DNA of 64,000 nucleotides from a virus (taxonomy: Duplodnaviria; Caudoviricetes). Below are positions 43,020 to 58,272 of the stretch, piece after piece. The notes under the pieces are model-generated. The model was not told where the DNA came from. It ran no database searches and worked only from the letters and a program-made list of their open reading frames with translations. The stretch lies in the IMG/VR virus record IMGVR_UViG_3300028864_000017, one strand, 5' to 3'. How positions within the stretch are numbered: position 1 is the first letter of the stretch; each line of letters starts with the position of its first letter. The position numbers and the translations under genes were made by a program.

Positions 43020-43907
43020 ATGAATAAATATTTCACATATACAATAAAAGACAAAAAAGATAAAAATTATCTTTTTATTAAATATCTTATTGTAACTAAT
43101 ATAAAATTTTCAAGTTATCATGAATGCGAATATGGTGAGTATATAACTTTCAGTGTTAATAATAACATTCCAAGAAAATTAAAATTAAAAGTTCTAAATA
43201 ACATAAAAATTAGTTATGAAGAACAACAAATTTTAGAAATTATTAGTCAGTCTACACCAGGTGTGAGAATGGATGTTATGTGTGGTTCTGATTTTAATCA
43301 CACTTCTGAAACAGCAAAAAATTTCTCAAATACAAACAACGTAATTTGCAGTTTCAATTTTAATGGTATAATTTGTTTAATTGACAAAAGTACAAATCTC
43401 AATAATTTATATAAGTATTATAATGATGCTCATTTGATGGAATGGGCTAAAATTGGTCCTATATGTGATGATGAATATGATGATAAAACTAAAATTGAGT
43501 ATGAAAAAAAATTAAAAATATCTGAGGAAAAATCTATAAAAAGAAGAATTGAAGAACACAAAAAAGATATTGAAGTTAAAAGAAAGTATAAAGAAAAAAT
43601 AAAAGGAATTGATATTGAACTATTAAATCAAAAAGATTGGGATGATTGGAAGTTAAAAAATAAAGATTCATACGGAAATTGTGTATTTGAATATGCTGAA
43701 GGATGGGCTAAATTAATGCAATCAGAAGCAAAATCAAAAAGTAAAGAAATTGATATTGAATTACTAAAAGAAATTGCAAGTAAAACATCATTTGAAATGG
43801 ATTTTTTAGGAATATCAGGATCAATGTTTTATGCAGCTCAATCAATTCTTGTACAATGTTGGAAATATGGTAGTTTACTTAAAGAATGGAGTGAAATCAA
43901 TAAATGA
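43020..43907 (+). CDS. Hypothetical protein
   Basis: C-terminal DSYGNCVFEYAEGWAKLMQ ... GISGSMFYAAQSILVQCWKYG phage domain. Confidence 0.65.
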   Translation: MNKYFTYTIKDKKDKNYLFIKYLIVTNIKFSSYHECEYGEYITFSVNNNIPRKLKLKVLNNIKISYEEQQILEIISQSTPGVRMDVMCGSDFNHTSETAKNFSNTNNVICSFNFNGIICLIDKSTNLNNLYKYYNDAHLMEWAKIGPICDDEYDDKTKIEYEKKLKISEEKSIKRRIEEHKKDIEVKRKYKEKIKGIDIELLNQKDWDDWKLKNKDSYGNCVFEYAEGWAKLMQSEAKSKSKEIDIELLKEIASKTSFEMDFLGISGSMFYAAQSILVQCWKYGSLLKEWSEINK

Positions 43908-46291: not shown

Positions 46292-47329
46292 ATGACAAAT
46301 AATATAGCGTTAACGTATGATGATATTCAACTTATACCATTTTATAGTGAAGTAGAACATAGAAATAAAATTTCATTAACAACAAAACTATCTACAAATT
46401 ATGAGTTGATGATACCATTGGTAGCATCACCTATGGATACCGTTTGTGAGCATGAAATGGCGTTTAAAATGTTTCAATTAGGAGGAGTAGGATGTATTCA
46501 TAGATTCATGACTATTGAAGAACAAGTTGATGAAATCAAAAAATTAAAAAAATTAATTGATTATAGTTTATATAATCCTTTTATTAATGTACAGAATATT
46601 CCAATAATGGCATCAGTAGGCTCAAATGGAGATTTTTTAGAAAGGTCTAAATCATTAATAGAATCTGGAGTAAATGTAATTCTTATTGATGTTGCTCATG
46701 GACATCACATAAATGTCAAAAAAGCGATTAAAGAAATAAAAGGATTGAATTTAGGAGTGGATATAATTGCAGGTAATATTGCAACTGCAGAAGCCGCAAT
46801 TGATTTGCAAAATTGGGGAGCTGATGGACTAAGATGTGGTATTGGTGGCGGAAGTCTTTGTACAACTAGAATCAAGACAGGATTTGGTGTTCCAAATGTT
46901 ACAAGTTTAATAGAAATTTTAAATGTTGCAAAAGTACCAGTTATGGCTGATGGTGGAATTAGAACAAGTGGAGATATATCAAAGGCTCTTGCATTAGGTT
47001 CATCTACTATTATGTTAGGCTCACTATTAGCTGGAACAGAAGAATCACCAGGAAAGGTTATAGAGAGTCCTAATGGCTTATATAAACGATATAGAGGCTC
47101 TGCATCATTAGAAACAAAAACTGTTCATGGTCAAGCGGAAAGAAATGTGGAAGGAGAGTCAACAACAATTCCATTTAAAGGAGGAGTCAAATTTGTAATT
47201 GAAGGATTAATAAACGGTGTTCGTTCTGCATTATCTTATGGAGGTGCAAAAAATTTATCTGAATATCACCCTAAATGGTATCAAGTAACAAATGCTGGAA
47301 TTGCTGAAGCAAGACCACATTTATTATAA
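46292..47329 (+). CDS. guaB: IMP dehydrogenase / GMP reductase family protein without CBS domains
   Basis: LTYDDIQLIP, ASPMDTV, IDVAHGH, GIGGGSLCTTR, ADGGIRTSGDISKALA, YRGSAS, VEG. Confidence 0.9.
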   Translation: MTNNIALTYDDIQLIPFYSEVEHRNKISLTTKLSTNYELMIPLVASPMDTVCEHEMAFKMFQLGGVGCIHRFMTIEEQVDEIKKLKKLIDYSLYNPFINVQNIPIMASVGSNGDFLERSKSLIESGVNVILIDVAHGHHINVKKAIKEIKGLNLGVDIIAGNIATAEAAIDLQNWGADGLRCGIGGGSLCTTRIKTGFGVPNVTSLIEILNVAKVPVMADGGIRTSGDISKALALGSSTIMLGSLLAGTEESPGKVIESPNGLYKRYRGSASLETKTVHGQAERNVEGESTTIPFKGGVKFVIEGLINGVRSALSYGGAKNLSEYHPKWYQVTNAGIAEARPHLL

Positions 47330-48861: not shown

Positions 48862-49053
48862 ATGTTAGAATTATTAAAATATGCTACTTCAGATTTTTGG
48901 ACATTTATATTTTGTTTTTTCATAATTTCTGTAATTGGAAGTTTTATAGTGGAAATATTCAACGCAATTTTTAAAAAGTCAGAGATTAGAATAGATTTAA
49001 CAGATAAAAAAGATAAACCAGATAAAACAGATAAAACAGATAATAAAAAATAG
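48862..49053 (+). CDS. Small membrane protein
   Basis: One TM helix; DK(T/P)DK repeat tail. Confidence 0.55.
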   Translation: MLELLKYATSDFWTFIFCFFIISVIGSFIVEIFNAIFKKSEIRIDLTDKKDKPDKTDKTDNKK

Positions 49054-49054
49054 T

Positions 49055-49579
49055 ATGAAAATAAGAACTGGATTTGTAAGCAATTCATCATCAAGTAGTT
49101 TTGTAGTTATCTTCCCATTTGAACCGAAATGTATGGAAGATGTAAAAAAAATTCTTTTTAGGGAAGAACAGTTATATTATGGAGATGAAAATTATTCTGT
49201 AAATAAAGTTTCAGAAACTATCTGGAATGATATATGTGATCAAACTAAGAATGATATTGATAAGGCAAGTGAAATAATATCGAATGGATATTTGGAAATG
49301 GAAAATGATGCTCCTGATTTTGATGATTTTAAATATATTGAAGATAGAAATGAAAGATGGGAAGCATTTGCAGAAGCTAAAGATAAATATTCAAAAAAAT
49401 TACTTAAAGAATTTTTCAATGTAAGAAAATTAAAACTTCAAGTTATTGATGGTAAAGAGGTAAATGATGGAGTGATGTATTGTTTTAGTTTTTCAGATAA
49501 TGATGGAGAATATTATAGTGCACTTGAACATGATGGAATATTCAACAAATTAAAAAATATAACTGTCAATTGTCATTGA
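49055..49579 (+). CDS. NSSSSS-motif protein 7
   Basis: MKIRTGFVSNSSSSSF; ends ITVNCH. Confidence 0.8.
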   Translation: MKIRTGFVSNSSSSSFVVIFPFEPKCMEDVKKILFREEQLYYGDENYSVNKVSETIWNDICDQTKNDIDKASEIISNGYLEMENDAPDFDDFKYIEDRNERWEAFAEAKDKYSKKLLKEFFNVRKLKLQVIDGKEVNDGVMYCFSFSDNDGEYYSALEHDGIFNKLKNITVNCH

Positions 49580-49585
49580 TTAAAT

Positions 49586-49613
49586 AAAAAAGCTTCTAAA
49601 AAGAAGCTTTTTT
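49586..49613. terminator. Bidirectional terminator
   Basis: aaaaagcttct-aaaa-agaagcttttttt. Confidence 0.75.
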
Positions 49614-49855
49614 TATTTCCAATTTCTTTTTGCTCTAATAGCAAAATTAATTTCTTGTTCTTGATCAATAATACTCTTTGGAACATCTTTGCCTTCATCT
49701 TGATATTTCTTACTTCTTTTTTTAAGTGATGATAATTCACTCTCCAACTCATCAATAGTTTTACCTGCATGTTCACCAGTATGTTTAACTTTAACTTTCT
49801 CATCCCATTTTTCATTCATAGATTTATAATCTATAAAATTTTTCATCATTTTCAT
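49613..49855 (-). CDS. Small protein with capsid-targeting-like N-terminus
   Basis: MKNFIDYKSMNEKWD; EINFAIRAKRNWK. Confidence 0.7.
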   Translation of the reverse strand: MKMMKNFIDYKSMNEKWDEKVKVKHTGEHAGKTIDELESELSSLKKRSKKYQDEGKDVPKSIIDQEQEINFAIRAKRNWK

Positions 49856-50033
49856 GTTTATAATATCATTTTCAGTATATATTTATATTGTAATGTTATC
49901 AAACTATAAAATATAAATGAAAATATAAGTAAAATATTAAAAAACAATAAAATATTTGGTAAACAATTCAAACCGAAGTACATTTGTATTGAAATTAAAA
50001 CAACAATCATTTAAATCATCTAAATTAAAAATT

Positions 50034-50198
50034 ATGACTACTAATTCAAGTAAATCAGAAAAAGTTTTCTTTTTGACTAAATCAGAATACAATGGAATTA
50101 AAGAAGTTGTAAATCTAAAAAATTTCACCAGAGTTCCAGGTGCAAATAAAGAAGTTGGTGGCTTCTCATTTTATGCAAAGAAAGAAAATGTTCTATAA
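50034..50198 (+). CDS. 54-aa protein, copy 1
   Basis: MTTNSSKSEKVFFLTKSEYNGIKEVVNLKNFTRVPGANKEVGGFSFYAKKENVL. Confidence 0.7.
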   Translation: MTTNSSKSEKVFFLTKSEYNGIKEVVNLKNFTRVPGANKEVGGFSFYAKKENVL

Positions 50199-50291
50199 AA
50201 AATCATAAAATATTTTGACAATTTAAAAAAATATAGTAATTTTGTATTGAAAATAAAACAATAATCATTTAAATCATTTAAATTAAACATT

Positions 50292-50462
50292 ATGACAACT
50301 AATTCAAGTAAATCAACAAAAGTTTTCTTTTTGACTCAAAATGAGTATAATGTTATTAAAGAGGTAGTAAACCTTAAAAATTTCACCAGAGTTCCAGGAA
50401 TAAATAAAGAAGTTGGTGGCTTCTCATTTTATGCAAAGAAAGAAAAAGAACTTGCAATGTAA
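50292..50462 (+). CDS. 56-aa protein, copy 2
   Basis: MTTNSSKSTKVFFLTQNEYNVIKEVVNLKNFTRVPGINKEVGGFSFYAKKEKELAM; missed by the ORF track. Confidence 0.7.
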   Translation: MTTNSSKSTKVFFLTQNEYNVIKEVVNLKNFTRVPGINKEVGGFSFYAKKEKELAM

Positions 50463-50604
50463 TATAAAAAATAATATAGTATAAAAAATAACCTTTTTTT
50501 CTTAATTGAAAAGAAAGGTTATTTTTATAAAAATAAGATTATAAACATTTTGTAAATTGATAATTTTTTATTACTTTTATACTCCAAATTAAAAATAATT
50601 GAAT

Positions 50605-50835
50605 ATGAAATATAAAGTAGATTATTACACAAGCACTGGTACAATGTCAGACAATGATTTCATAGGTATATTTAATACTCCTAAAGAAGCCAGTGATGCA
50701 AAAACAGAGTACATAAAAGTGTATATGGGAGAATCAAAAGAAGAATATTGTGAACTAAACGAATGTGATGAAGAAGAATATTATGATGAATTAAAAAATT
50801 ATGAAAATTCAATAGTCATTGAACCAATATTATAA
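50605..50835 (+). CDS. Acidic hypothetical protein
   Basis: MKYKVDYY follows a TAnnTTTA promoter variant. Confidence 0.6.
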   Translation: MKYKVDYYTSTGTMSDNDFIGIFNTPKEASDAKTEYIKVYMGESKEEYCELNECDEEEYYDELKNYENSIVIEPIL

Positions 50836-50863
50836 TTTTTATTTATTTAAATAATAAGTTTAG

Positions 50864-51015
50864 AAACATTTGGTAGATTAAAAACTTTTTATTACTTTTG
50901 TACTATCATATTAAAAGTAGAAAAAAATGATAGTTTTTCATTAATATAAAAAAAAGATTGAAAAATGTTTGGTAGAATGAAAACTTTTTATTACTTTTGT
51001 ACTATCATATTAAAA
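50864..51015 (+). promoter_or_regulatory. Tandem duplicated Bacteroidota sigma70 promoters upstream of the tRNA locus
   Basis: Two ~50-bp copies: TTTG (50869)-20-TACTTTTG (50893) and TTTG (50968)-20-TACTTTTG (50992). Confidence 0.8.
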
Positions 51016-51113
51016 GAAAATAAAAAATAGAAAAAAATGACTTTTTTTCTATTATATATAACAAAGAATAAACTTTATAGAAAATAAAAACTAATATAAA
51101 AAAGCAAAACAAG

Positions 51114-51203
51114 ATGTATCGTAATCTATATATAAATGAGGAAATGTGTAACAACGAAATTATCAATAATATTGATGATACATCCCAATTGACTGAGAAA
51201 TAA
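51114..51203 (+). CDS. Putative attenuator leader peptide 1 (29 aa)
   Basis: MYRNLYINEEMCNNEIINNIDDTSQLTEK; last codons contain an antiterminator strand. Confidence 0.7.
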   Translation: MYRNLYINEEMCNNEIINNIDDTSQLTEK

Positions 51204-51262
51204 AATTAAGGCTTATGCCTATAATTATAAATCCAGTCAATTAAAAAATGACTGGATTTTTT
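51187..51262 (+). terminator. Attenuator 1: terminator with competing antiterminator
   Basis: Stem 51229-51239/51249-51259 plus T-run; AATTGACTG (51187-51195) complements CAGTCAATT (51234-51242). Confidence 0.8.
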
Positions 51263-51265
51263 GTT

Positions 51266-51499
51266 ATGAAAAAAGTTAAAGAAAATAAAATTGATGAATC
51301 AGCAGAAGTAGTAAATAAAATTCAAAAAAATTATGATGAACTGAAAAGGAAATCTGATAGAACTGAAAAATTTATAATGTTTGCTGATAAAATCAAAATT
51401 GATTATAGTGAAGTTCCTAAAACAGAAAAAGGAATGAATTCAAAAGCAAAAGAGATTGCTAAGAAACTTTATAAGAAAATAGATAAAGAAAAAGATTAA
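51266..51499 (+). CDS. Hypothetical basic protein downstream of attenuator 1
   Basis: Probable start MKKVKENK. Confidence 0.6.
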   Translation: MKKVKENKIDESAEVVNKIQKNYDELKRKSDRTEKFIMFADKIKIDYSEVPKTEKGMNSKAKEIAKKLYKKIDKEKD

Positions 51500-51506
51500 A
51501 ATATAT

Positions 51507-51578
51507 CGCGCGGTAGGGAAGTGATACCCCGCAAGGCTCATAACCTTGAGAACGCTGGTTTGAGTCCAGCCTGCGCAA
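51507..51578 (+). tRNA. tRNA-Met(CAT), initiator-like
   Basis: C1:A72 mismatch; caagg-CTCATAA-ccttg; T arm gctgg-TTTGAGT-ccagc. Confidence 0.8.
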
Positions 51579-51583
51579 CAATT

Positions 51584-51664
51584 AAAAAACTATATTGAAC
51601 AGCACCTCACTGGTAATGGGGACAATGCGAGTACACTAGCAGCTAAACTCAAAATAGTTTTTTT
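51584..51664 (+). ncRNA. tRNA-like structured element with Thr(GGT)-type anticodon hairpin
   Basis: Outer stem actat.ttga/tcaa.atagt, ACAGCA, cctca-CTGGTAA-tgggg; no canonical D or T arms. Confidence 0.45.
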
Positions 51665-51691
51665 AAAAATAATAAATTAAAAGTAAATATC

Positions 51692-51826
51692 ATGAATAAC
51701 ATTAATAACATATACAGCATTTATCGCAATTGTAATATTAATTACAATATGGAAGAGATATGTATTAATATGATTAATAATGATTATATTAATGATGATG
51801 AAAATAATGTAGGAAGAACTGGATAA
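51692..51826 (+). CDS. Putative attenuator leader peptide 2 (44 aa)
   Basis: MNNINNIYSIYRNCNINYNMEEICINMINNDYINDDENNVGRTG; no K, L or F. Confidence 0.75.
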   Translation: MNNINNIYSIYRNCNINYNMEEICINMINNDYINDDENNVGRTG

Positions 51827-51890
51827 GTTAAAAAATTATTATGTGAATAATAAAAAAACTCAGTTCTTAAAAATAAGAACTGAGTTTTTT
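51814..51890 (+). terminator. Attenuator 2: terminator with competing antiterminator
   Basis: Stem CTCAGTTCTT (51859-68)/AAGAACTGAG (51875-84) plus T6; AAGAACTG (51814-21) complements CAGTTCTT (51861-68). Confidence 0.82.
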
Positions 51891-51933
51891 ATTTTTAAAT
51901 GCTCTTTGAAATACTAGATAATGAATAATAAAT

Positions 51934-52016
51934 GGGAGTAATGCTCAAATTGGTCAGGCGCAAAACTGTAAATTTTGTAACCTTTTAGGTCGTCAGTTCG
52001 AATCTGGCTGCTCCCA
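51934..52016 (+). tRNA. tRNA-Tyr(GTA)
   Basis: caaaa-CTGTAAA-ttttg, long variable arm, TTCGAAT. Confidence 0.9.
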
Positions 52017-52026
52017 CAAAAAACAC

Positions 52027-52098
52027 GATGCGTTCGTATATCGGAAAGTACTCTAGGTTTTCAACCTAGCAAGATGAGTTCAACTCTCATACGCATTA
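52027..52098 (+). tRNA. tRNA-Glu(TTC)
   Basis: gatgcgt/acgcatt; ctagg-TTTTCAA-cctag; atgag-TTCAACT-ctcat. Confidence 0.85.
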
Positions 52099-52106
52099 CA
52101 AAAAAT

Positions 52107-52179
52107 GGGATATAGGTCAAATGGTTAAGATGTCACCCCGTCACGGTGCACGGAGCGAGTTCGAATCTCGTATATCCCG
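52107..52179 (+). tRNA. tRNA-Asp(GTC) with C33
   Basis: gggatat/atatccc; loop CCGTCAC; TTCGAAT. Confidence 0.85.
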
Positions 52180-52202
52180 CTTATTATCAAAAAATTAAAA
52201 AT

Positions 52203-52290
52203 GCATTGGTTGCTTTAGTCGGTCGAAAAGTCTGGTCTGTTAAACCAGTAAGAGTAATCTTCAACGTAGGTTCGAATCCTATCCAGTGCG
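52203..52290 (+). tRNA. tRNA-Asn(GTT) with long variable arm
   Basis: gcattgg/ccagtgc; ctggt-CTGTTAA-accag; aaga-GTAA-tctt extra arm. Confidence 0.85.
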
Positions 52291-52296
52291 CAAAAA

Positions 52297-52368
52297 GGGA
52301 GTGTAGCTCAAAGGTAGAGCGTTTCGCTGTTAACGAAAGTGTTGGGATGTCGCAATTCCCCACTCCCG
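52297..52368 (+). tRNA. tRNA-Asn(GTT) with atypical T loop
   Basis: gggagtg/cactccc; tttcg-CTGTTAA-cgaaa; T loop ATGTCGCAAT lacks TTC. Confidence 0.8.
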
Positions 52369-52448
52369 CGAATAAATGATTAACTTTAAACTTTAATCTT
52401 TTTTAATATTATATATTTTTATATATACAATAAAAATATAAATAAATT

Positions 52449-53273
52449 ATGGAAAGCATTAAAACTAAAATATTATCATTAAGAAAAGAAGGAAAAACAT
52501 ACAATGAAATATCAGAATTATTAAATTGTTCAAAAGGTACAATATCTTATCATTGTAAAAAATTATATAATAATATTGAATTAAATAAAAAAAACACAAA
52601 ATTATCAAATTTAAAAAAATTAAAAAATATACCAAATATAGATTTTGGTGATGAGATATCTGATGAGATTTTTAAAAAAGTTATTGAATATCGAATAAAT
52701 GGTAATACATATGAAGAAATAATAGAAAAAACTAAATTATCTTTAGATAAAATTAAAAAAATATGCAGATTAAATAATATCAATGATGGTAATTATAAAA
52801 AAAATAATTATTGTAAAATATATGAAAACGTTAATAATGATGACGTTATTGAAATGCAAAAATACTATGATGAATGTAAAAGTACAAGAAAAGTATCTAA
52901 AAAATTCAATATTGGTAGATATCAAATATCTAAAATTTTAATTATAAATAAAAAAGAAAAATTATCTAAAGAAGAGTATAAAATAAAAAGAAAAAATGAT
53001 ATTGTAAATAATGTTATTAGTTGGAGAAAAGATAAAAAAAGGAAACTTGTTGAATATAAAGGAGGAAAATGCGAAAGGTGTGGATATGATAAATGTATAG
53101 ATGTATTTGATTTTCATCATAAAGATCCTACTCAAAAAGATTTTGGAATAAGTGCAAAATCTTATTCATATGAAAGATTAAAAAAAGAAGTTGATAAATG
53201 TATGTTAGTGTGTAAAAATTGTCACACAGAAATACATTATGAAATAAAAAATAAAAATGGTTCTGGCGCATAA
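52449..53273 (+). CDS. HTH plus HNH endonuclease (homing-endonuclease-like) inside the tRNA array
   Basis: N-terminal HTH repeats; CERCGY ... FDFHHKDP ... KCMLVCKNCHTEIH. Confidence 0.88.
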   Translation: MESIKTKILSLRKEGKTYNEISELLNCSKGTISYHCKKLYNNIELNKKNTKLSNLKKLKNIPNIDFGDEISDEIFKKVIEYRINGNTYEEIIEKTKLSLDKIKKICRLNNINDGNYKKNNYCKIYENVNNDDVIEMQKYYDECKSTRKVSKKFNIGRYQISKILIINKKEKLSKEEYKIKRKNDIVNNVISWRKDKKRKLVEYKGGKCERCGYDKCIDVFDFHHKDPTQKDFGISAKSYSYERLKKEVDKCMLVCKNCHTEIHYEIKNKNGSGA

Positions 53274-53344
53274 CGGCTGGTGTACCTGACTGTCACTCAG
53301 GCTTCTCGTAAGGGATATAGGGAATTCGACTTTCCTCAGAACCG
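53259..53344 (+). tRNA. tRNA-Asp(GTC) with long variable arm
   Basis: ggttctg/cagaacc; cctga-CTGTCAC-tcagg; tctc-GTAA-ggga extra arm. Confidence 0.85.
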
Positions 53345-53354
53345 CAAAGATAAT

Positions 53355-53436
53355 GGAAATATCGCATAGTGGCAATTGCAACTGACTGTAAATCAGTTCT
53401 TTCACAAGTTCGTGGGTTCGAGTCCCTCTATTTCCA
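53355..53436 (+). tRNA. tRNA-Tyr(GTA)
   Basis: ggaaata/tatttcc; actga-CTGTAAA-tcagt; TTCGAGT. Confidence 0.9.
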
Positions 53437-53443
53437 CAAAAAT

Positions 53444-53517
53444 GACCGAGTGCCCGAATGGAATAAAGGGATAGTCTGCAAAACTATATTGTGTGGGTTC
53501 GAGTCCCACCTTGGCCT
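53444..53517 (+). tRNA. tRNA-Cys(GCA)
   Basis: atagt-CTGCAAA-actat; gtggg-TTCGAGT-cccac; U73. Confidence 0.88.
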
Positions 53518-53529
53518 CAATGAACATTA

Positions 53530-53601
53530 TGCCGAAGCTTAGTGGAAAAGAGATTTCTCTCATAAGGAAATCCAAATGAGTTCGAACCTCATATTCGGTA
53601 C
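53530..53601 (+). tRNA. tRNA-CAT (Met or Ile2)
   Basis: tttct-CTCATAA-ggaaa; atgag-TTCGAAC-ctcat; acceptor register slightly irregular. Confidence 0.75.
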
Positions 53602-53667
53602 AGAGTTTATTATTATGACTAGTATCATACTAATAGTATGTTATGATTAATAAAAATAAACTAAAAT

Positions 53668-53741
53668 AGTCTTGTATATCAGTCGGTTAGATTGTCATCC
53701 TGATAAGATGGAGGTCGTGAGTTCAAGTCTCACCAGGACTA
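53668..53741 (+). tRNA. tRNA-Ile(GAT)
   Basis: agtcttg/caggact; tcatc-CTGATAA-gatgg; TTCAAGT. Confidence 0.9.
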
Positions 53742-53752
53742 CTAAATAACAT

Positions 53753-53829
53753 TGGTGAATATACCCTCTGCCTGATAAGTAGTAGAAAGGTTAATTGGTC
53801 ACATGTGGGTTCAATTCCCACTTCACCAA
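53753..53829 (+). tRNA. Non-canonical D-arm-less tRNA-Ile(GAT)-like RNA
   Basis: tggtgaa/ttcacca; only 7 nt before the anticodon arm ctgc-CTGATAA-gtag; 21-nt insert with AAGGTTAATTGGT; gtggg-TTCAATT-cccac. Confidence 0.75.
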
Positions 53830-53842
53830 CAATAAAAAACAC

Positions 53843-53921
53843 ACTGTCGTATCCCCACTGGCTTATATCCAGTCATTAACAAGGTAATTGGTGTATGAGG
53901 GTTCAAGTCCCTTCGGCAGTA
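53843..53921 (+). tRNA. Non-canonical D-arm-less tRNA-Ile(TAT)-like RNA
   Basis: actgtcg/cggcagt; 7 nt then actgg-CTTATAT-ccagt; 23-nt insert with AAGGTAATTGGT; gaggg-TTCAAGT-ccctt. Confidence 0.75.
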
Positions 53922-53934
53922 CAATAAACAACAA

Positions 53935-54059
53935 GGTAGTGTAACTCAAAAGCACAAAGGGGATAATTATGAAACTAGAATAAATAATTTGAAACGAGCG
54001 AAGGATAGAGTGCTGGGCCGATGTCTCAGAAGTTGATGGTTCGAGTCCATCTGCTACCA
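53935..54059 (+). tRNA. tRNA-like gene (GAT) with ~55-nt D-loop insertion
   Basis: ggtagtg/tgctacc; D stem actc/gagt; ctggg-CCGATGT-ctcag; gatgg-TTCGAGT-ccatc. Confidence 0.65.
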
Positions 54060-54067
54060 CAAAAATA

Positions 54068-54151
54068 TGTGATTAATATGACACAGGTAGTCATGTCAGT
54101 ATGTAAAACTGATCTCTTCGGAGGTTGTGGGTTCGAGCCCAACTAGTACCA
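54068..54151 (+). tRNA. Degenerate tRNA-Tyr(GTA)
   Basis: atgac/gtcat D stem, tcagt-ATGTAAA-actga, ctc-TTCG-gag, TTCGAG; acceptor stem poorly paired. Confidence 0.55.
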
Positions 54152-54219
54152 CAAAAAATATTTAATACAATTTATATTATTTATATAATTATCACTATTT
54201 ATATATAAATAAAAAAAAT

Positions 54220-54759
54220 ATGAATAAATTAGTCGAGAAATTTAAATCATCACAAGAAAAATTTGCAATATTTTTATCAGATTCATTATCTAGTATGACA
54301 ATGTTTTGGATAATTACAATATTAGTTATATTTCCATTATTTTTTAGTCAGCCATCAGGTTTAGTTGCATGGATGCAATATTTAGTATCAGTTTTCTTTC
54401 AAGGAGTAGCATTACCAGTTTTAGGATATATTGCTAAGATAAGTGGAAGTAGAACTGATGCAATAATATCAAAGATTGAAGAATTATCCGAAAAAATAGA
54501 AGCTATGACAGAGCATATAAATGTTGATGTTGATGACATAAAAACTCATGTAGTTGATATTGATATTGAATTAAAAGATGTAGATACTGATGTTAGTGAC
54601 ATAAAAAGTCATGTTGATGATATAGATATTGAGTTAAAGTATGCTGACACAGACGTTAATGAAATACAAAATCATGTTGATAATATACAAGAAGATTTAA
54701 AAAATGTAGACTTTGACATAAATAACATTCAAGATAATATAGAAAAAGAAAAAAAATAA
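54220..54759 (+). CDS. DUF1003-like membrane protein with 21-aa coiled-coil repeats
   Basis: 2 TM; repeats DVDTDVSDIKSHVDDIDIELK; TATATAAATA upstream. Confidence 0.65.
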   Translation: MNKLVEKFKSSQEKFAIFLSDSLSSMTMFWIITILVIFPLFFSQPSGLVAWMQYLVSVFFQGVALPVLGYIAKISGSRTDAIISKIEELSEKIEAMTEHINVDVDDIKTHVVDIDIELKDVDTDVSDIKSHVDDIDIELKYADTDVNEIQNHVDNIQEDLKNVDFDINNIQDNIEKEKK

Positions 54760-54830
54760 TTTACATTAAAATTATCATTGTATAAAAATTTTAATATAAT
54801 TTGTACTATTTATACATAAAGACAAATGAT

Positions 54831-55211
54831 ATGGATAATTTAGTAGAAAATATTAAGTCGGAGCAAGAAAATATATCATTAAGAACTGATGATATTATTA
54901 CAAAGATAGAAGAGTTATCTAAAAAAATAGACACAATAACTGCACAAATAACAAATGAAGTTAGTGAAATAAAAAATATTATTTATGACATACAACAAAA
55001 TATAAAAAATGTTGATACTGATGTTGATAATATAGTAGGTAATGTAGGTGAAATAAAAGGAGAATTAAAGGATGTTGATTCTGATATTAGTAAAATCAAA
55101 GATGATATTAAAAATGATAATTTGGAAGATATTAAAGACAGTGAAGAATTAAAAAACGCAATAAAAAAGAAATCTGGTGGAATTACATATAATGTAGTTA
55201 TTCAACAATAA
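54831..55211 (+). CDS. Soluble paralog of the 54220 repeat domain
   Basis: RTDDIITKIEELSKKI; NVDTDVDNIVGNVGEIKGELK. Confidence 0.65.
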   Translation: MDNLVENIKSEQENISLRTDDIITKIEELSKKIDTITAQITNEVSEIKNIIYDIQQNIKNVDTDVDNIVGNVGEIKGELKDVDSDISKIKDDIKNDNLEDIKDSEELKNAIKKKSGGITYNVVIQQ

Positions 55212-55274
55212 AAAATTTTTAATATTGAATATACAAAAAAATTGTGTATCTTTGTTTTTATTTAAAAAATCAAC

Positions 55275-55760
55275 ATGAAATACGGAATTTACACATTAGT
55301 AATTGAGAATTATATCACTAAAAATTTACCTCTACTAAGTACATTTTCATTAAAAATGGAATTCGGATGGGGTAATGGTTATATATTAATACCTAATAAT
55401 CATCCATCATATGGAGTTTCATATGATGATATGAATACAATAAGTGTACATGGAGGATTAACATATGGTCAATTTTTTGATTCTAAATCATTTTTAGAAT
55501 GGATTGATAATTTAGAAATTGATGGTGATGTAACAATAGATAATTATAAAAAATTAGATAATTATTGGATGATAGGATTTGATACTAATCATTATGGAGA
55601 TAGTATTGAAAAATGTTCTAAAGAATATGTAATACATCAATCTGAATATTTAATGGAACAATGTTTAAATAATAAAATAGAAGGAGTTATGAAATACAAA
55701 TTAGCATACTCAAGAAAAGAAAAATTAAAAAACATTAATCAAGTCATTAAAAATAAATGA
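55275..55760 (+). CDS. Conserved phage hypothetical protein with RxxKL tag
   Basis: WGNGYILIPNNHP, VHGGLTY, IGFDTNHYGD; RKEKLKNI; promoter at 55247-55254. Confidence 0.7.
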   Translation: MKYGIYTLVIENYITKNLPLLSTFSLKMEFGWGNGYILIPNNHPSYGVSYDDMNTISVHGGLTYGQFFDSKSFLEWIDNLEIDGDVTIDNYKKLDNYWMIGFDTNHYGDSIEKCSKEYVIHQSEYLMEQCLNNKIEGVMKYKLAYSRKEKLKNINQVIKNK

Positions 55761-55774
55761 GTAAATACTTACAT

Positions 55775-55846
55775 GTGCTTATAGTGTAATGGATAACACG
55801 TATCACTACGGATGATGAGTTGAAGGTTCGAGTCCTTCTAGGCATA
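55775..55846 (+). tRNA. tRNA-Arg(ACG)
   Basis: gtgctta/taggcat; tatca-CTACGGA-tgatg; gaagg-TTCGAGT-ccttc. Confidence 0.9.
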
Positions 55847-55921
55847 CAAAAAAATCAATTTGGACTAATTTAATTTTATATATAAGTTAATTAATAAACT
55901 TAAAATTAAAAAATTAAATAA

Positions 55922-56218
55922 ATGAATAAAATTGAAGAAATTTTCAAATCTTGGAGAATATCATTCAACCCAAATGATGAGCAATCAGATCTTGCAAGTA
56001 AAAGAATTGAAATATGTGATGGGTGTGAGCATAAAGAGATGTTAAATATAGGAGAGATTGATATATTTGCAAGATGTAATTTATGTGGCTGTGCGTTAAA
56101 AGCAAAAATATTCACACCTAAAACATATCAAGATATCGGAGGAACATGTCCTATTCAAAAATGGACTGAAGTTGAAAAAGAGCATTTAGATTCAATTGAA
56201 AATGGAAAGAAAATTTAA
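55922..56218 (+). CDS. Cys-rich (Zn-binding) phage protein
   Basis: RIEICDGCEH ... CNLCGCALKAK ... CPIQKW. Confidence 0.7.
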   Translation: MNKIEEIFKSWRISFNPNDEQSDLASKRIEICDGCEHKEMLNIGEIDIFARCNLCGCALKAKIFTPKTYQDIGGTCPIQKWTEVEKEHLDSIENGKKI

Positions 56219-56477
56219 AATAGGTGACATTGTTATTTGTTCTGAAATTTGCAATGACATTAAAGAATATCCTTGGTATCATAAAATTCCTATGTCAATT
56301 ATTGGATTTTCAGAATATGGTAATTGTTACTATACTGATTATTGGGACTCTGATAACATAGGAATGATGACAAATAAGACAATAAATGGAGTAACTTATG
56401 AAAGTATTTCAGAAGAATGTTTAGAGTTTTCTATTAAGCACACAAGAAAAGAGAAATTAAAAAAGCTTCATATTTAA
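56196..56477 (+). CDS. KOW/SH3-like protein with RxxKL tag
   Basis: KFKIGDIVIC ... TRKEKLKKL. Confidence 0.65.
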   Translation: MKMERKFKIGDIVICSEICNDIKEYPWYHKIPMSIIGFSEYGNCYYTDYWDSDNIGMMTNKTINGVTYESISEECLEFSIKHTRKEKLKKLHI

Positions 56478-56492
56478 ATATGAAGCTTTTTT
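56458..56492. terminator. Bidirectional terminator
   Basis: aaaaagcttcatat-ttaa-atatgaagctttttt. Confidence 0.8.
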
Positions 56493-56498
56493 AATTTT

Positions 56499-57539
56499 TT
56501 AATTTTTACCATGAATAGGACAGTTATCATCAATTAAACATTTTTTTGAAGGATAAATTTCAATATTATTAATTTTTGGACATGTACATCTTGGAGTTTG
56601 CCAAAATTTATGAAATAATATATCTTCATCTTCTCCGTAAAGAGTTTGCATATTAAATTCAATATTAGTTAGTTTTTTATAATATTTTTTTATACTACCT
56701 TCACAGTTATAAATATCATCATAAATCTTCAATTTATTTAACAAACAATCTTTCAATTTTGATAAATTTTCATTAATTTGAATTCTATTCTCATCAACTC
56801 TACTTCTAAACTCTTTATATTTAACCAAATATTTATCCTCTTTTTCATATTTGTCAATCAAATCATTTAGTGTAGAACTTTTCAATTCTTTATATTCTTC
56901 AGGATTAATATCTTCGTCTTCAATACATTTTTCTAGCTCTTCAAATCTTTCTTTTTTATCAAGAGGACCACCATGAAATGTTATTTCACTAAATATTGCG
57001 TTATACAAATCAAATAATGTAAATGTTTTTTCTCCTAACTCAAATTTTGAATCTTCTTCATTTTTACCCTCTATCAATTTATTATAATCATATACAGTGA
57101 AATTTTTATTGAGTGAAATGTTTAATTTTTTTAAATTATTAAGAGATACAAAGTCTATTGAATAAAAATCAGAATTGTTATTTGATACGCCGTGAATTGT
57201 AGATGTTACATTTAATTCATTATCATACTTATTACAGCTCCAATTAACTTCTAGATAATCCATATCAAGTTTGTCAGTTGGATTATTTTCAATTTCTTGT
57301 AAAAATGGATCAATATAATATCCATCTAATGATGAATAAAAAATATCATTAAAATCATTAACATTATGTGATATAATATCAAACAATCTTTTAAATATTA
57401 AATTCTCACCTAATTCAACAGTATCTGACAAAAAAAGTAATATATCGTTTGGGTCAATAACATCAGCATTATCTATTGAATCTAGGTATAAAATTGATTC
57501 TTCGCTATAATAGATTTTATTGTTTGTTATGGTTATCAT
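56499..57539 (-). CDS. Hypothetical protein
   Basis: 346 aa; C-terminal PRCTCPKINN ... CPIHG. Confidence 0.7.
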   Translation of the reverse strand: MITITNNKIYYSEESILYLDSIDNADVIDPNDILLFLSDTVELGENLIFKRLFDIISHNVNDFNDIFYSSLDGYYIDPFLQEIENNPTDKLDMDYLEVNWSCNKYDNELNVTSTIHGVSNNNSDFYSIDFVSLNNLKKLNISLNKNFTVYDYNKLIEGKNEEDSKFELGEKTFTLFDLYNAIFSEITFHGGPLDKKERFEELEKCIEDEDINPEEYKELKSSTLNDLIDKYEKEDKYLVKYKEFRSRVDENRIQINENLSKLKDCLLNKLKIYDDIYNCEGSIKKYYKKLTNIEFNMQTLYGEDEDILFHKFWQTPRCTCPKINNIEIYPSKKCLIDDNCPIHGKN

Positions 57540-57548
57540 ATAATTAAA

Positions 57549-57875
57549 TTATTTATTAGTATCGACTAATTCAGCATCAACAATTTCTACCGATTCAGGA
57601 GAAATTATACTTTCTTCAACTACTTCTGGTATAACACTTAGATTATCAATATCAATTAATGATATATCATCTATAGTATTCAATTCATCAATATTTATAT
57701 CTGAATCAATAGCATCTTCTGTTGATGTATGTGCTTGTCCAGCCATAATCTCCTGTTGAAGTTTAATATAATTTTCCATCATTTTCTTCTTCAATATTTC
57801 TTGCTGTACTTTCTTATTTTCGTTATATTTTCTAACTTTAGAATCGTGTCCTTTTCTATTTTTTGATTTTGGCAT
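57549..57875 (-). CDS. Hypothetical protein
   Basis: Basic N-terminus MPKSKNRKGH, acidic C-terminus. Confidence 0.65.
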   Translation of the reverse strand: MPKSKNRKGHDSKVRKYNENKKVQQEILKKKMMENYIKLQQEIMAGQAHTSTEDAIDSDINIDELNTIDDISLIDIDNLSVIPEVVEESIISPESVEIVDAELVDTNK

Positions 57876-57909
57876 ATTTTTATGTTTTTATTTTATATTA
57901 ATTGATTAA

Positions 57910-58272
57910 TCAATTAAAATTCTCTATTTTATTTATTTTATCTTTTCTGAGATATAAGCTAAAATCAGTTATTTTAATTAAACTAAGTTTATCTAAATAC
58001 GATGCAAGTTCTGTATCACAGAAATAATAAGAATTATTATATTTAAATATCAAGTAGTGATCATAATTTACATAAGACATAAAATCATCAAGGTTATCTA
58101 ATTCGATAACCTTGAGATTTTTTATCTCATCAATAATATAAAGATTTTTCAATGAAGATATCTTAACATCACTTATATCAATAGCATTTTCGCTATTATT
58201 ATATATTATGTCTCTTATTTCATCAAAAATCTCCTTATTATTGCTGTGTTTCTGATACTGTTCCTGGTTCAT
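57910..58272 (-). CDS. Hypothetical protein with RxxKI tag
   Basis: LRKDKINKI. Confidence 0.65.
   Translation of the reverse strand: MNQEQYQKHSNNKEIFDEIRDIIYNNSENAIDISDVKISSLKNLYIIDEIKNLKVIELDNLDDFMSYVNYDHYLIFKYNNSYYFCDTELASYLDKLSLIKITDFSLYLRKDKINKIENFN

Follow-up and report, generated by a model that had tools for sequence, protein, structure and literature searches.

How the tRNA genes of a phage could be switched on, and in answer to what signal, is the question raised by a short open reading frame (ORF) and a hairpin with a U-tract that together head the tRNA locus of a giant phage. It is usual to regard phage tRNA genes as constitutive aids to codon usage or as a means of countering host defences that cleave tRNAs; to our knowledge, the control of their expression is largely unknown. 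In the absence of any expression data, we consider it likely that this ORF (leader 1), the hairpin and the U-tract form a ribosome-mediated (leader-peptide) transcription attenuator, and that production of these tRNAs is probably restricted to times at which ribosomes are slow in decoding the leader codons. An attenuator of this kind should possess a short ORF enriched in codons of the regulated genes, an intrinsic terminator between that ORF and those genes, and an antiterminator helix that takes up the 5' arm of the terminator and so cannot coexist with it.

The locus belongs to a 143,429-nt IMG/VR virus record of ~24% G+C (CheckV completeness ~20%), of which the window analysed here, a stretch of 64,000 nt, is a part, and the sequencing runs with the source phage are peat, permafrost and soil metagenomes. 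Matches to the pattern TTTG-N17-23-TAnnTTTG are more frequent in the window than shuffles would lead one to expect (20, compared with 8.1 +/- 2.7), and because we take the TTTG/TAnnTTTG module to be a promoter of the Bacteroidota sigma-A type, a host among the Bacteroidota is inferred, which is not in itself a result. The sole tRNA cluster of the contig (51507-55846, + strand), identified with ARAGORN and Rfam alignments, covers Met, Tyr, Glu, Asp, Asn, Cys, Ile and Arg. Among its members are unusual tRNA-like genes (52204-52289, 53753-53925 and 53935-54150), several of which are missed by ARAGORN: one places an Asn anticodon on a body with a long variable arm, and a D arm is apparently missing from others, which bear the Ile anticodons GAT and TAT. 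The features of the locus are collected in Table 1. For comparison, one related contig of 140,730 nt (G002) was found via a neighbouring protein with 67% identity, and another of 330,208 nt, rated 46% complete (G001), was found together with several shorter contigs via DNA patterns. The DNA pattern ACATCNCAATTGACTG was too loose as a search probe, giving 98 matches that were nearly all unrelated.

Table 1. Positions in the window of leader 1, of its predicted control elements and of the genes that follow it.
Feature	Position	Strand	Remarks
Promoter-like module, copy 1 (TTTG, 20 nt, TAnnTTTG)	50869..50905	+	Direct repeat D1
Promoter-like module, copy 2; proximal promoter of leader 1	50968..51004	+	Kept in G001 and G002
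5'-UTR hairpin, 12-bp A/U stem, TGAC loop (A7-TGAC-T7)	51026..51053	+	From the MFE fold; role unknown
Bracket stem, 5' arm, over the AUG	51113..51120	+	From the centroid structure; 7/8 bp kept in G002
Leader ORF 1, 29 codons, stop TAA	51114..51203	+	Sensor, codons 2-22; tail codons encode the antiterminator strand
Bracket stem, 3' arm, adjoining region 2	51177..51184	+	From sequence and fold
Region 2, antiterminator strand	51187..51195	+	6-14 nt upstream of the stop codon
Small GGC/GCC hairpin inside the antiterminator helix	51204..51226	+	From the fold; pair 51205:51225 compensatory in G001
Intrinsic-terminator-like hairpin and U6	51229..51262	+	Arms 51229-39/51249-59; 9-nt loop; 5' arm overlaps region 3 (51234-42)
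First gated gene, 77-aa Lys/Glu-rich protein	51266..51499	+	87% identical to G002, 96% to G001
Initiator-type tRNA(CAT)	51507..51579	+	C1xA72 mismatch
Leader 2 and 17-bp terminator, next gate before the tRNA array	51692..51890	+	ORF 51692-51826, 44 residues; terminator 51853-51890
tRNA anticodons, first part			CAT (C1xA72, initiator-type); GTA, TTC, GTC; GTT x2; GTA, GCA (ARAGORN and Rfam)
tRNA anticodons, rest			CAT (weak match), GAT; more Ile- and Tyr-anticodon tRNA-like genes; ACG (ARAGORN and Rfam)

The initial annotation, made from the sequence alone, had pointed to the residues of the leader peptide, and its counts are correct: 21 of the first 22 residues of leader 1 fall within the set N/I/Y/D/E/M/C/R, the exception being a Leu (CTA), and the Arg codon is CGT. 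This set is exactly the amino-acid set of the downstream tRNA array. When composition was scanned in all 80,222 stop-free windows of 22 codons, in six frames of the whole contig of 143,429 nt, at least 21 of 22 in-set residues were reached only by one window in leader 1 and by 21 in leader 2, and the composition of the leaders is therefore not explained by AT-richness. In the long ORFs of the phage, in-set residues amount to 44%, and Lys, Leu, Ser and Phe together to 31%; of these four, the leader 1 sensor contains only the single Leu. In-set residues number 21/28 in leader 1 (p = 7.7e-4) and 38/43 in leader 2 (p = 1.3e-9). The sensor Arg codons, CGT in leader 1 and CGC in leader 2, are both read by the tRNA-Arg(ACG) of the locus, and these two codons make up 11.7% of the Arg codons in the long ORFs of the phage. 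With respect to enrichment in codons of the regulated genes, leader 1 meets the criterion for an attenuator.

Just upstream of leader 1 lie the two tandem copies of a 37-nt promoter-like module, of which none would be expected in the window by chance, and which was found in relatives only upstream of tRNA-cluster leaders. Between the promoters and the leader, the hairpin at 51026-51053 is identical in the window, G001 and G002, the UTR 3' of it having diverged, and a hairpin with an A/U stem and a TGAC loop is also present before a leader for Lys, Phe, Trp, Ser and His in relatives (L106:1846-1875, L003:7306-7335). This hairpin could be an operator or a pause site. The inverted repeat that had been described as bracketing the leader is indeed a perfect one of 8 bp, GATGTATC (51113-20) with GATACATC (51177-84), and lies across the start codon; by our own estimate, the repeat alone is not clearly beyond chance.

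The pairing on which an attenuator would depend is also exact, as first proposed: AATTGACTG (51187-95), in the distal leader, and CAGTCAATT (51234-42), in the terminator 5' arm, are reverse complements of each other and can form a duplex of 9 bp. The sensor codons are situated 8-70 nt upstream of region 2, whose last base is 6 nt short of the stop codon, a spacing that would suit masking of region 2 by a ribosome at the stop codon. In comparison with shuffled sequences, leader 1 has a stronger duplex between its distal part and the 5' arm of the terminator (p = 0.025), and the leader 1 RNA as a whole is also more stably folded (z = -4.1). For the terminator hairpin by itself, a free energy of -12.1 to -12.9 kcal/mol is predicted; a simple terminator scan did not list this hairpin (51229-59), which has a 9-nt loop. 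The presence of an intrinsic terminator between leader 1 and the regulated genes is thus met as a prediction, termination itself not having been measured, and the requirement for a mutually exclusive antiterminator helix is met by a helix that is predicted, conserved and found again in other cassettes.

Nascent RNA that extends to 51243 is predicted to adopt the antiterminator (-19.2 kcal/mol, 51185-51244). At equilibrium, the full-length RNA favours the terminator together with the small hairpin, whichever ribosome footprint is masked, and the switch must therefore be kinetic, as in classical attenuators; a claim of a thermodynamic switch was dropped, as the equilibrium folds with masked footprints never flip to the antiterminator. 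There is no clear protector (1:2) hairpin over region 2: the bracket stem ends three bases before it, and a weak 5-bp extension of that stem is the sole part predicted to reach into it. For lack of a clear protector, an untranslated leader 1 may read through, and the unit would then respond to initiation too, a point of note as the first gated tRNA is of the initiator type.

According to the attenuation mechanism that we propose, transcription would start at either of the two tandem promoter modules, and a ribosome would translate the 29-codon leader, whose codons 2-22 are almost exclusively those read by the tRNAs of the locus. If decoding were fast, the ribosome would reach the last codons or the stop codon (51201-03) and cover AATTGACTG, so that the terminator would form and transcription would end at ~51262. 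If the ribosome lagged on codons 2 to ~18, 51187-95 would be free to pair with 51234-42 around the small hairpin, and this antiterminator would preclude the terminator and permit read-through into the 77-aa ORF, the initiator-type tRNA, leader 2 and the tRNA array. The supply of tRNAs would thereby be under negative feedback. That the leader is translated, that transcription terminates at ~51262 and that the switch operates are all inferred from the anatomy of the locus and the established model of attenuators. No usable RNA run was found; one metatranscriptome (word share 0.06) contained short contigs of low depth from relatives, one of which includes the promoter sequence, and as DNA carry-over is not excluded, no conclusion can be drawn about expression or 3' ends.

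The 77-aa protein encoded by the first gated gene has no family match in Pfam or PHROGs, and a metagenome search with it gave, among the matches listed, only the 330-kb relative G001. An ATG at 51248, in the 3' arm of the terminator, is in frame with the ATG of this ORF, 18 nt apart from it, and an ATG in the terminator 3' arm of G002 is likewise in frame, at a distance of 15 nt. The choice between terminator and antiterminator might also hide or expose a start codon.

Alignment with related phage loci, which the initial annotation had recommended as a check, revealed that the leader 1 unit is kept in two further lineages with all indels in frame, and that leader 1 and leader 2 are both present, in the same order, in G001 and G002. 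The leader 1 ORFs of the window and G001 differ by a single synonymous change, while the 5' UTR upstream is full of substitutions and indels. Leader 1 of G002 is four codons shorter through in-frame deletions only, with in-set residues swapped for other in-set residues; it has no Arg codon, and only 16/24 of its residues are in-set (p = 0.02). The region 2 strand CAATTGACTG is invariant in the three lineages. In the terminator of G002, the core is kept and the base of the stem has undergone a compensatory change from U:A to A:U; in the small hairpin of G001, the pair 51205:51225 has changed from A:U to U:A, which is again compensatory. Among contigs from soil and peat, no listed variant falls in 51187-95 or in the terminator arms, the nearest being at 51185 and 51196, and variants are also found within the small hairpin (51204-26).

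If mini-ORFs of this kind sense the tRNAs behind them, other tRNA clusters are expected to be headed by leaders rich in other amino acids, and such leaders were found. In G001, a 17-codon ORF with five consecutive Gln codons precedes four tRNA-Gln genes and is followed by a chain of alternative hairpins that ends in a terminator. In G002 and three further contigs, a 35-codon ORF and a terminator are located before tRNAs for Lys(TTT), Phe, Trp, Ser(GCT), His and Lys(CTT); 19 of the 34 residues of this leader, of which there are three sequence variants, are K, F, W, S or H. In another relative, G003, a 30-codon ORF with nine Leu codons, four of them consecutive, and a terminator stand before three tRNA-Leu genes. 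In a cross-table of the five leader types, each is enriched only in the amino acids of its own cluster: the diagonal p values range from 7.7e-4 to 2e-11 (with 1.2e-4 for the K/F/W/S/H leader, 4e-5 for Gln and 3e-4 for Leu), and every off-diagonal cell, in which a leader is set against the amino acids of another cluster, is non-significant. A cluster of two tRNAs in G001 (320.7-321.0 kb) has no recognisable leader.

The terminators of these cassettes differ in sequence, and each cassette has a segment complementary to the 5' arm of its own terminator, located inside the distal leader in four of the types and just past the stop codon in the Gln unit. In comparison with shuffles, the complementarity has p values of 0.001 to 0.10 per cassette, and a Fisher combined p of 1.6e-6 over the five. 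As read from the sequences alone, this recurrent complementarity is covariation across paralogous units. The initial annotation had judged chance unlikely, and this judgement is upheld by the standing of the leaders among the 80,222 windows, by the fold z of -4.1 and by the combined complementarity p of 1.6e-6; its reading of the unit as an attenuator is strengthened by conservation, by compensatory changes and by the matched Gln, Leu and K/F/W/S/H leaders of relatives. The Gln cassette (L104:1860-2000 in G001) has five successive segments that pair with their neighbours and two sites with a hairpin followed by a U-run, and it looks more elaborate, with its multiple hairpins, than the attenuators of leaders 1 and 2.

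The relationship between leaders 1 and 2 is less certain. They had been described as paralogous cassettes, and the likeness stands in part: the order of residues in the two peptides is more similar than their composition would explain (p = 0.006), but the likeness of the DNA is not significant. They also have a common geometry, in which the complementary strand ends 1-4 nt before the stop codon. Paralogy, resting on modest similarity of peptide order and on this shared geometry, is plausible and not proven.

The series arrangement, too, is supported only in part. An independent promoter downstream of leader 1, which would have told against a gate at that point, was looked for, and on the + strand between 50800 and 52450, TAnnTTTG boxes occur only in the two modules upstream of leader 1. 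In G001, only 25 nt separate leader 2 from a second copy of the initiator tRNA that precedes it, a gap that leaves no room for a promoter. Because there is no other -7 box and because of this 25-nt gap, no promoter is evident for leader 2 itself, and transcription probably arrives there by reading through from upstream. Two attenuators in series, as envisaged from the outset, are thus plausible in the window, but the two-step gate itself is not demonstrated. Against a strict two-step gate are the GIY-YIG gene and -7-like box that G001 has between the 77-aa ORF and the tRNAs, the HNH endonuclease gene just before leader 2 in G002, and, in the window, a non-conserved long hairpin with U7 (51584-51664).

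Other explanations of leader 1 must be weighed against attenuation by the eight codon families. The same RNA switch might be ON by default and report the general competence of translation, including initiation through the initiator tRNA, so that whatever kept a ribosome from arriving in time at the end of the leader would expose region 2 and lead to read-through, a reading that refines the attenuator interpretation and does not contradict it. It would fit the absence of a protector helix over 51187-95, the prediction that untranslated nascent RNA adopts the antiterminator once 51234-42 has been made, the initiator type of the first gated tRNA (C1xA72, with GGG/CCC in relatives) and the covering of the AUG by the bracket stem. 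We nevertheless find it improbable in this form, as region 2 is already taken up in part by the bracket stem and its 5-bp extension when region 3 has yet to be transcribed, a sensor of initiation alone would not require the strong codon bias seen in codons 2-22, and no kinetic test lies behind the reading. A wider proposal remains tentative and, taken as a whole, somewhat doubtful: that leader 1 is a default-ON attenuator which reads both initiation and the eight codon families, exerts homeostatic control over the initiator tRNA, makes a two-stage gate with leader 2, belongs to a modular system with the Gln, Leu and K/F/W/S/H units, and responds to depletion of host tRNAs. If a default-ON modular system is the true one, depletion or cleavage of host tRNAs by the host itself could switch on those of the phage, and the combination of leader 1 with leader 2 would impose a steeper, two-stage gate on the elongator array.

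Alternatively, leader 1 might be a duplicate copy of leader 2 undergoing decay; its hairpin would then be a leaky constitutive terminator or an insulator, and leader 2 the only regulator. That region 2 and both terminator arms are invariant or show compensatory changes next to a diverging UTR, and that all indels are in frame with one synonymous change in the ORF relative to G001, make such decay quite improbable, even though leader 1 is shorter and less extreme than leader 2 (21/28 compared with 38/43 in-set residues), is more eroded in G002, and is separated from leader 2 by homing-endonuclease genes in relatives. It is very improbable that the ORF arose in AT-rich DNA merely by chance, or that it encodes a micropeptide whose own function has nothing to do with the hairpin. 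At 24% G+C, 29 codons without a stop are nothing unusual (~6% per frame start, by our estimate), and there is no evidence of expression, but the composition is a genome-wide outlier, the match to a tRNA set recurs in five cassettes with different sets, and the complementarity to the terminator arm recurs with it. Leader-peptide attenuation of the tRNA locus is therefore retained as the preferred reading.

Leader-peptide attenuators are familiar from the amino-acid operons of enterobacteria (thrL, ilvL of ilvGMEDA, trpL, hisL, leuL and pheL), of which thrL and ilvL are multivalent. Leader 1 resembles the thrL/ilvL type in having a short leader, inferred to be translated, that is rich in regulatory codons, an intrinsic terminator and an alternative helix with the terminator 5' arm, in the proposed selection of the fold by the position of the ribosome, and in the representation of several amino acids in one leader, all of this being a likeness of predicted parts. 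It differs in that it would regulate tRNA genes and a small ORF instead of biosynthetic enzymes, is encoded by a phage, represents eight amino acids, would exert its feedback most directly on tRNA supply, and has region 2 within its last codons without a clear 1:2 protector. What sets leader 1 apart from the amino-acid operon attenuators is thus the tRNA genes as targets, the eight-amino-acid sensor, the phage origin and the missing protector. No match to an Rfam leader family (His_leader, Leu_leader, Thr_leader, Trp_leader or Phe leader) was found at E values up to 1 in 49000-58000.

The pheM leader attenuator of the E. coli pheST operon, which encodes phenylalanyl-tRNA synthetase, senses a single amino acid. 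Like leader 1, it applies leader-peptide attenuation to a component of the decoding apparatus and not to a biosynthetic pathway, whereas leader 1 would control tRNAs instead of a synthetase and sense the whole downstream set instead of one amino acid. T-box riboswitches bind uncharged tRNA directly, without any need for translation, and may be arranged in tandem, as in the leader of B. subtilis thrZ. They share with leader 1 transcription attenuation that depends on the status of tRNA, in modules that can be repeated in series, but leader 1 has no specifier loop and has instead a conserved ORF whose translation is inferred; in the Rfam search of 49000-58000, there was no T-box (RF00230) match at E values up to 1. 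A full-text literature search that did not cover most subscription journals found no description of leader-peptide control of tRNA genes, and a term search of the Lak megaphage paper gave none either.

If leader 1 acts as proposed, it would constitute a direct feedback loop on decoding capacity, in which the ribosome measures a shortage of tRNAs and the phage transcribes that set of tRNAs only then, and it would bring viruses, and a new class of regulated genes, within the reach of the textbook attenuation of amino-acid operons. The leader would, in addition, furnish a sequence signature of which tRNAs a phage treats as one supply unit, and a compact part, amenable to testing, from which synthetic sensors of tRNA status could be built. 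To this the leader 1 unit in particular adds the possible regulation of an initiator tRNA and the two-stage arrangement. In the homologues of the initiator-type tRNA from G001 and G002, the GGG/CCC anticodon stem is present as well.

Several other features of the region are peculiar to individual lineages. Homing-endonuclease genes occupy different positions in the tRNA locus according to lineage: an HNH endonuclease with an N-terminal HTH in the window (52449-53273), an HNH type in G002 (L003:8144-8833), and a GIY-YIG-like one in G001 (reverse complement of L108, ~500-1090 nt after the ATG of leader 1). Between the initiator-type tRNA and leader 2, the window has a G+C-richer segment in a 15-nt inverted repeat, followed by T7 (51580-51670); the element is predicted to fold into a long hairpin with U7 (51584-51664; z = -2.1), and has no counterpart in the records of four relatives. 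The second copy of the initiator tRNA in G001 occupies the place of this element. A few kb upstream of the tRNA locus are genes for a protein with a C-terminal Tad4 (Thoeris inhibitor) domain (43020-43907; Pfam E = 5.7e-20) and for a protein of the IMPDH/GMP-reductase family (46292-47329; E = 7.6e-100). Two paralogous small ORFs of ~56-80 aa (49956-50198 and 50292-50462) have a common C-terminal motif, and each is preceded by a TTTG...TAnnTTTG promoter-like match.
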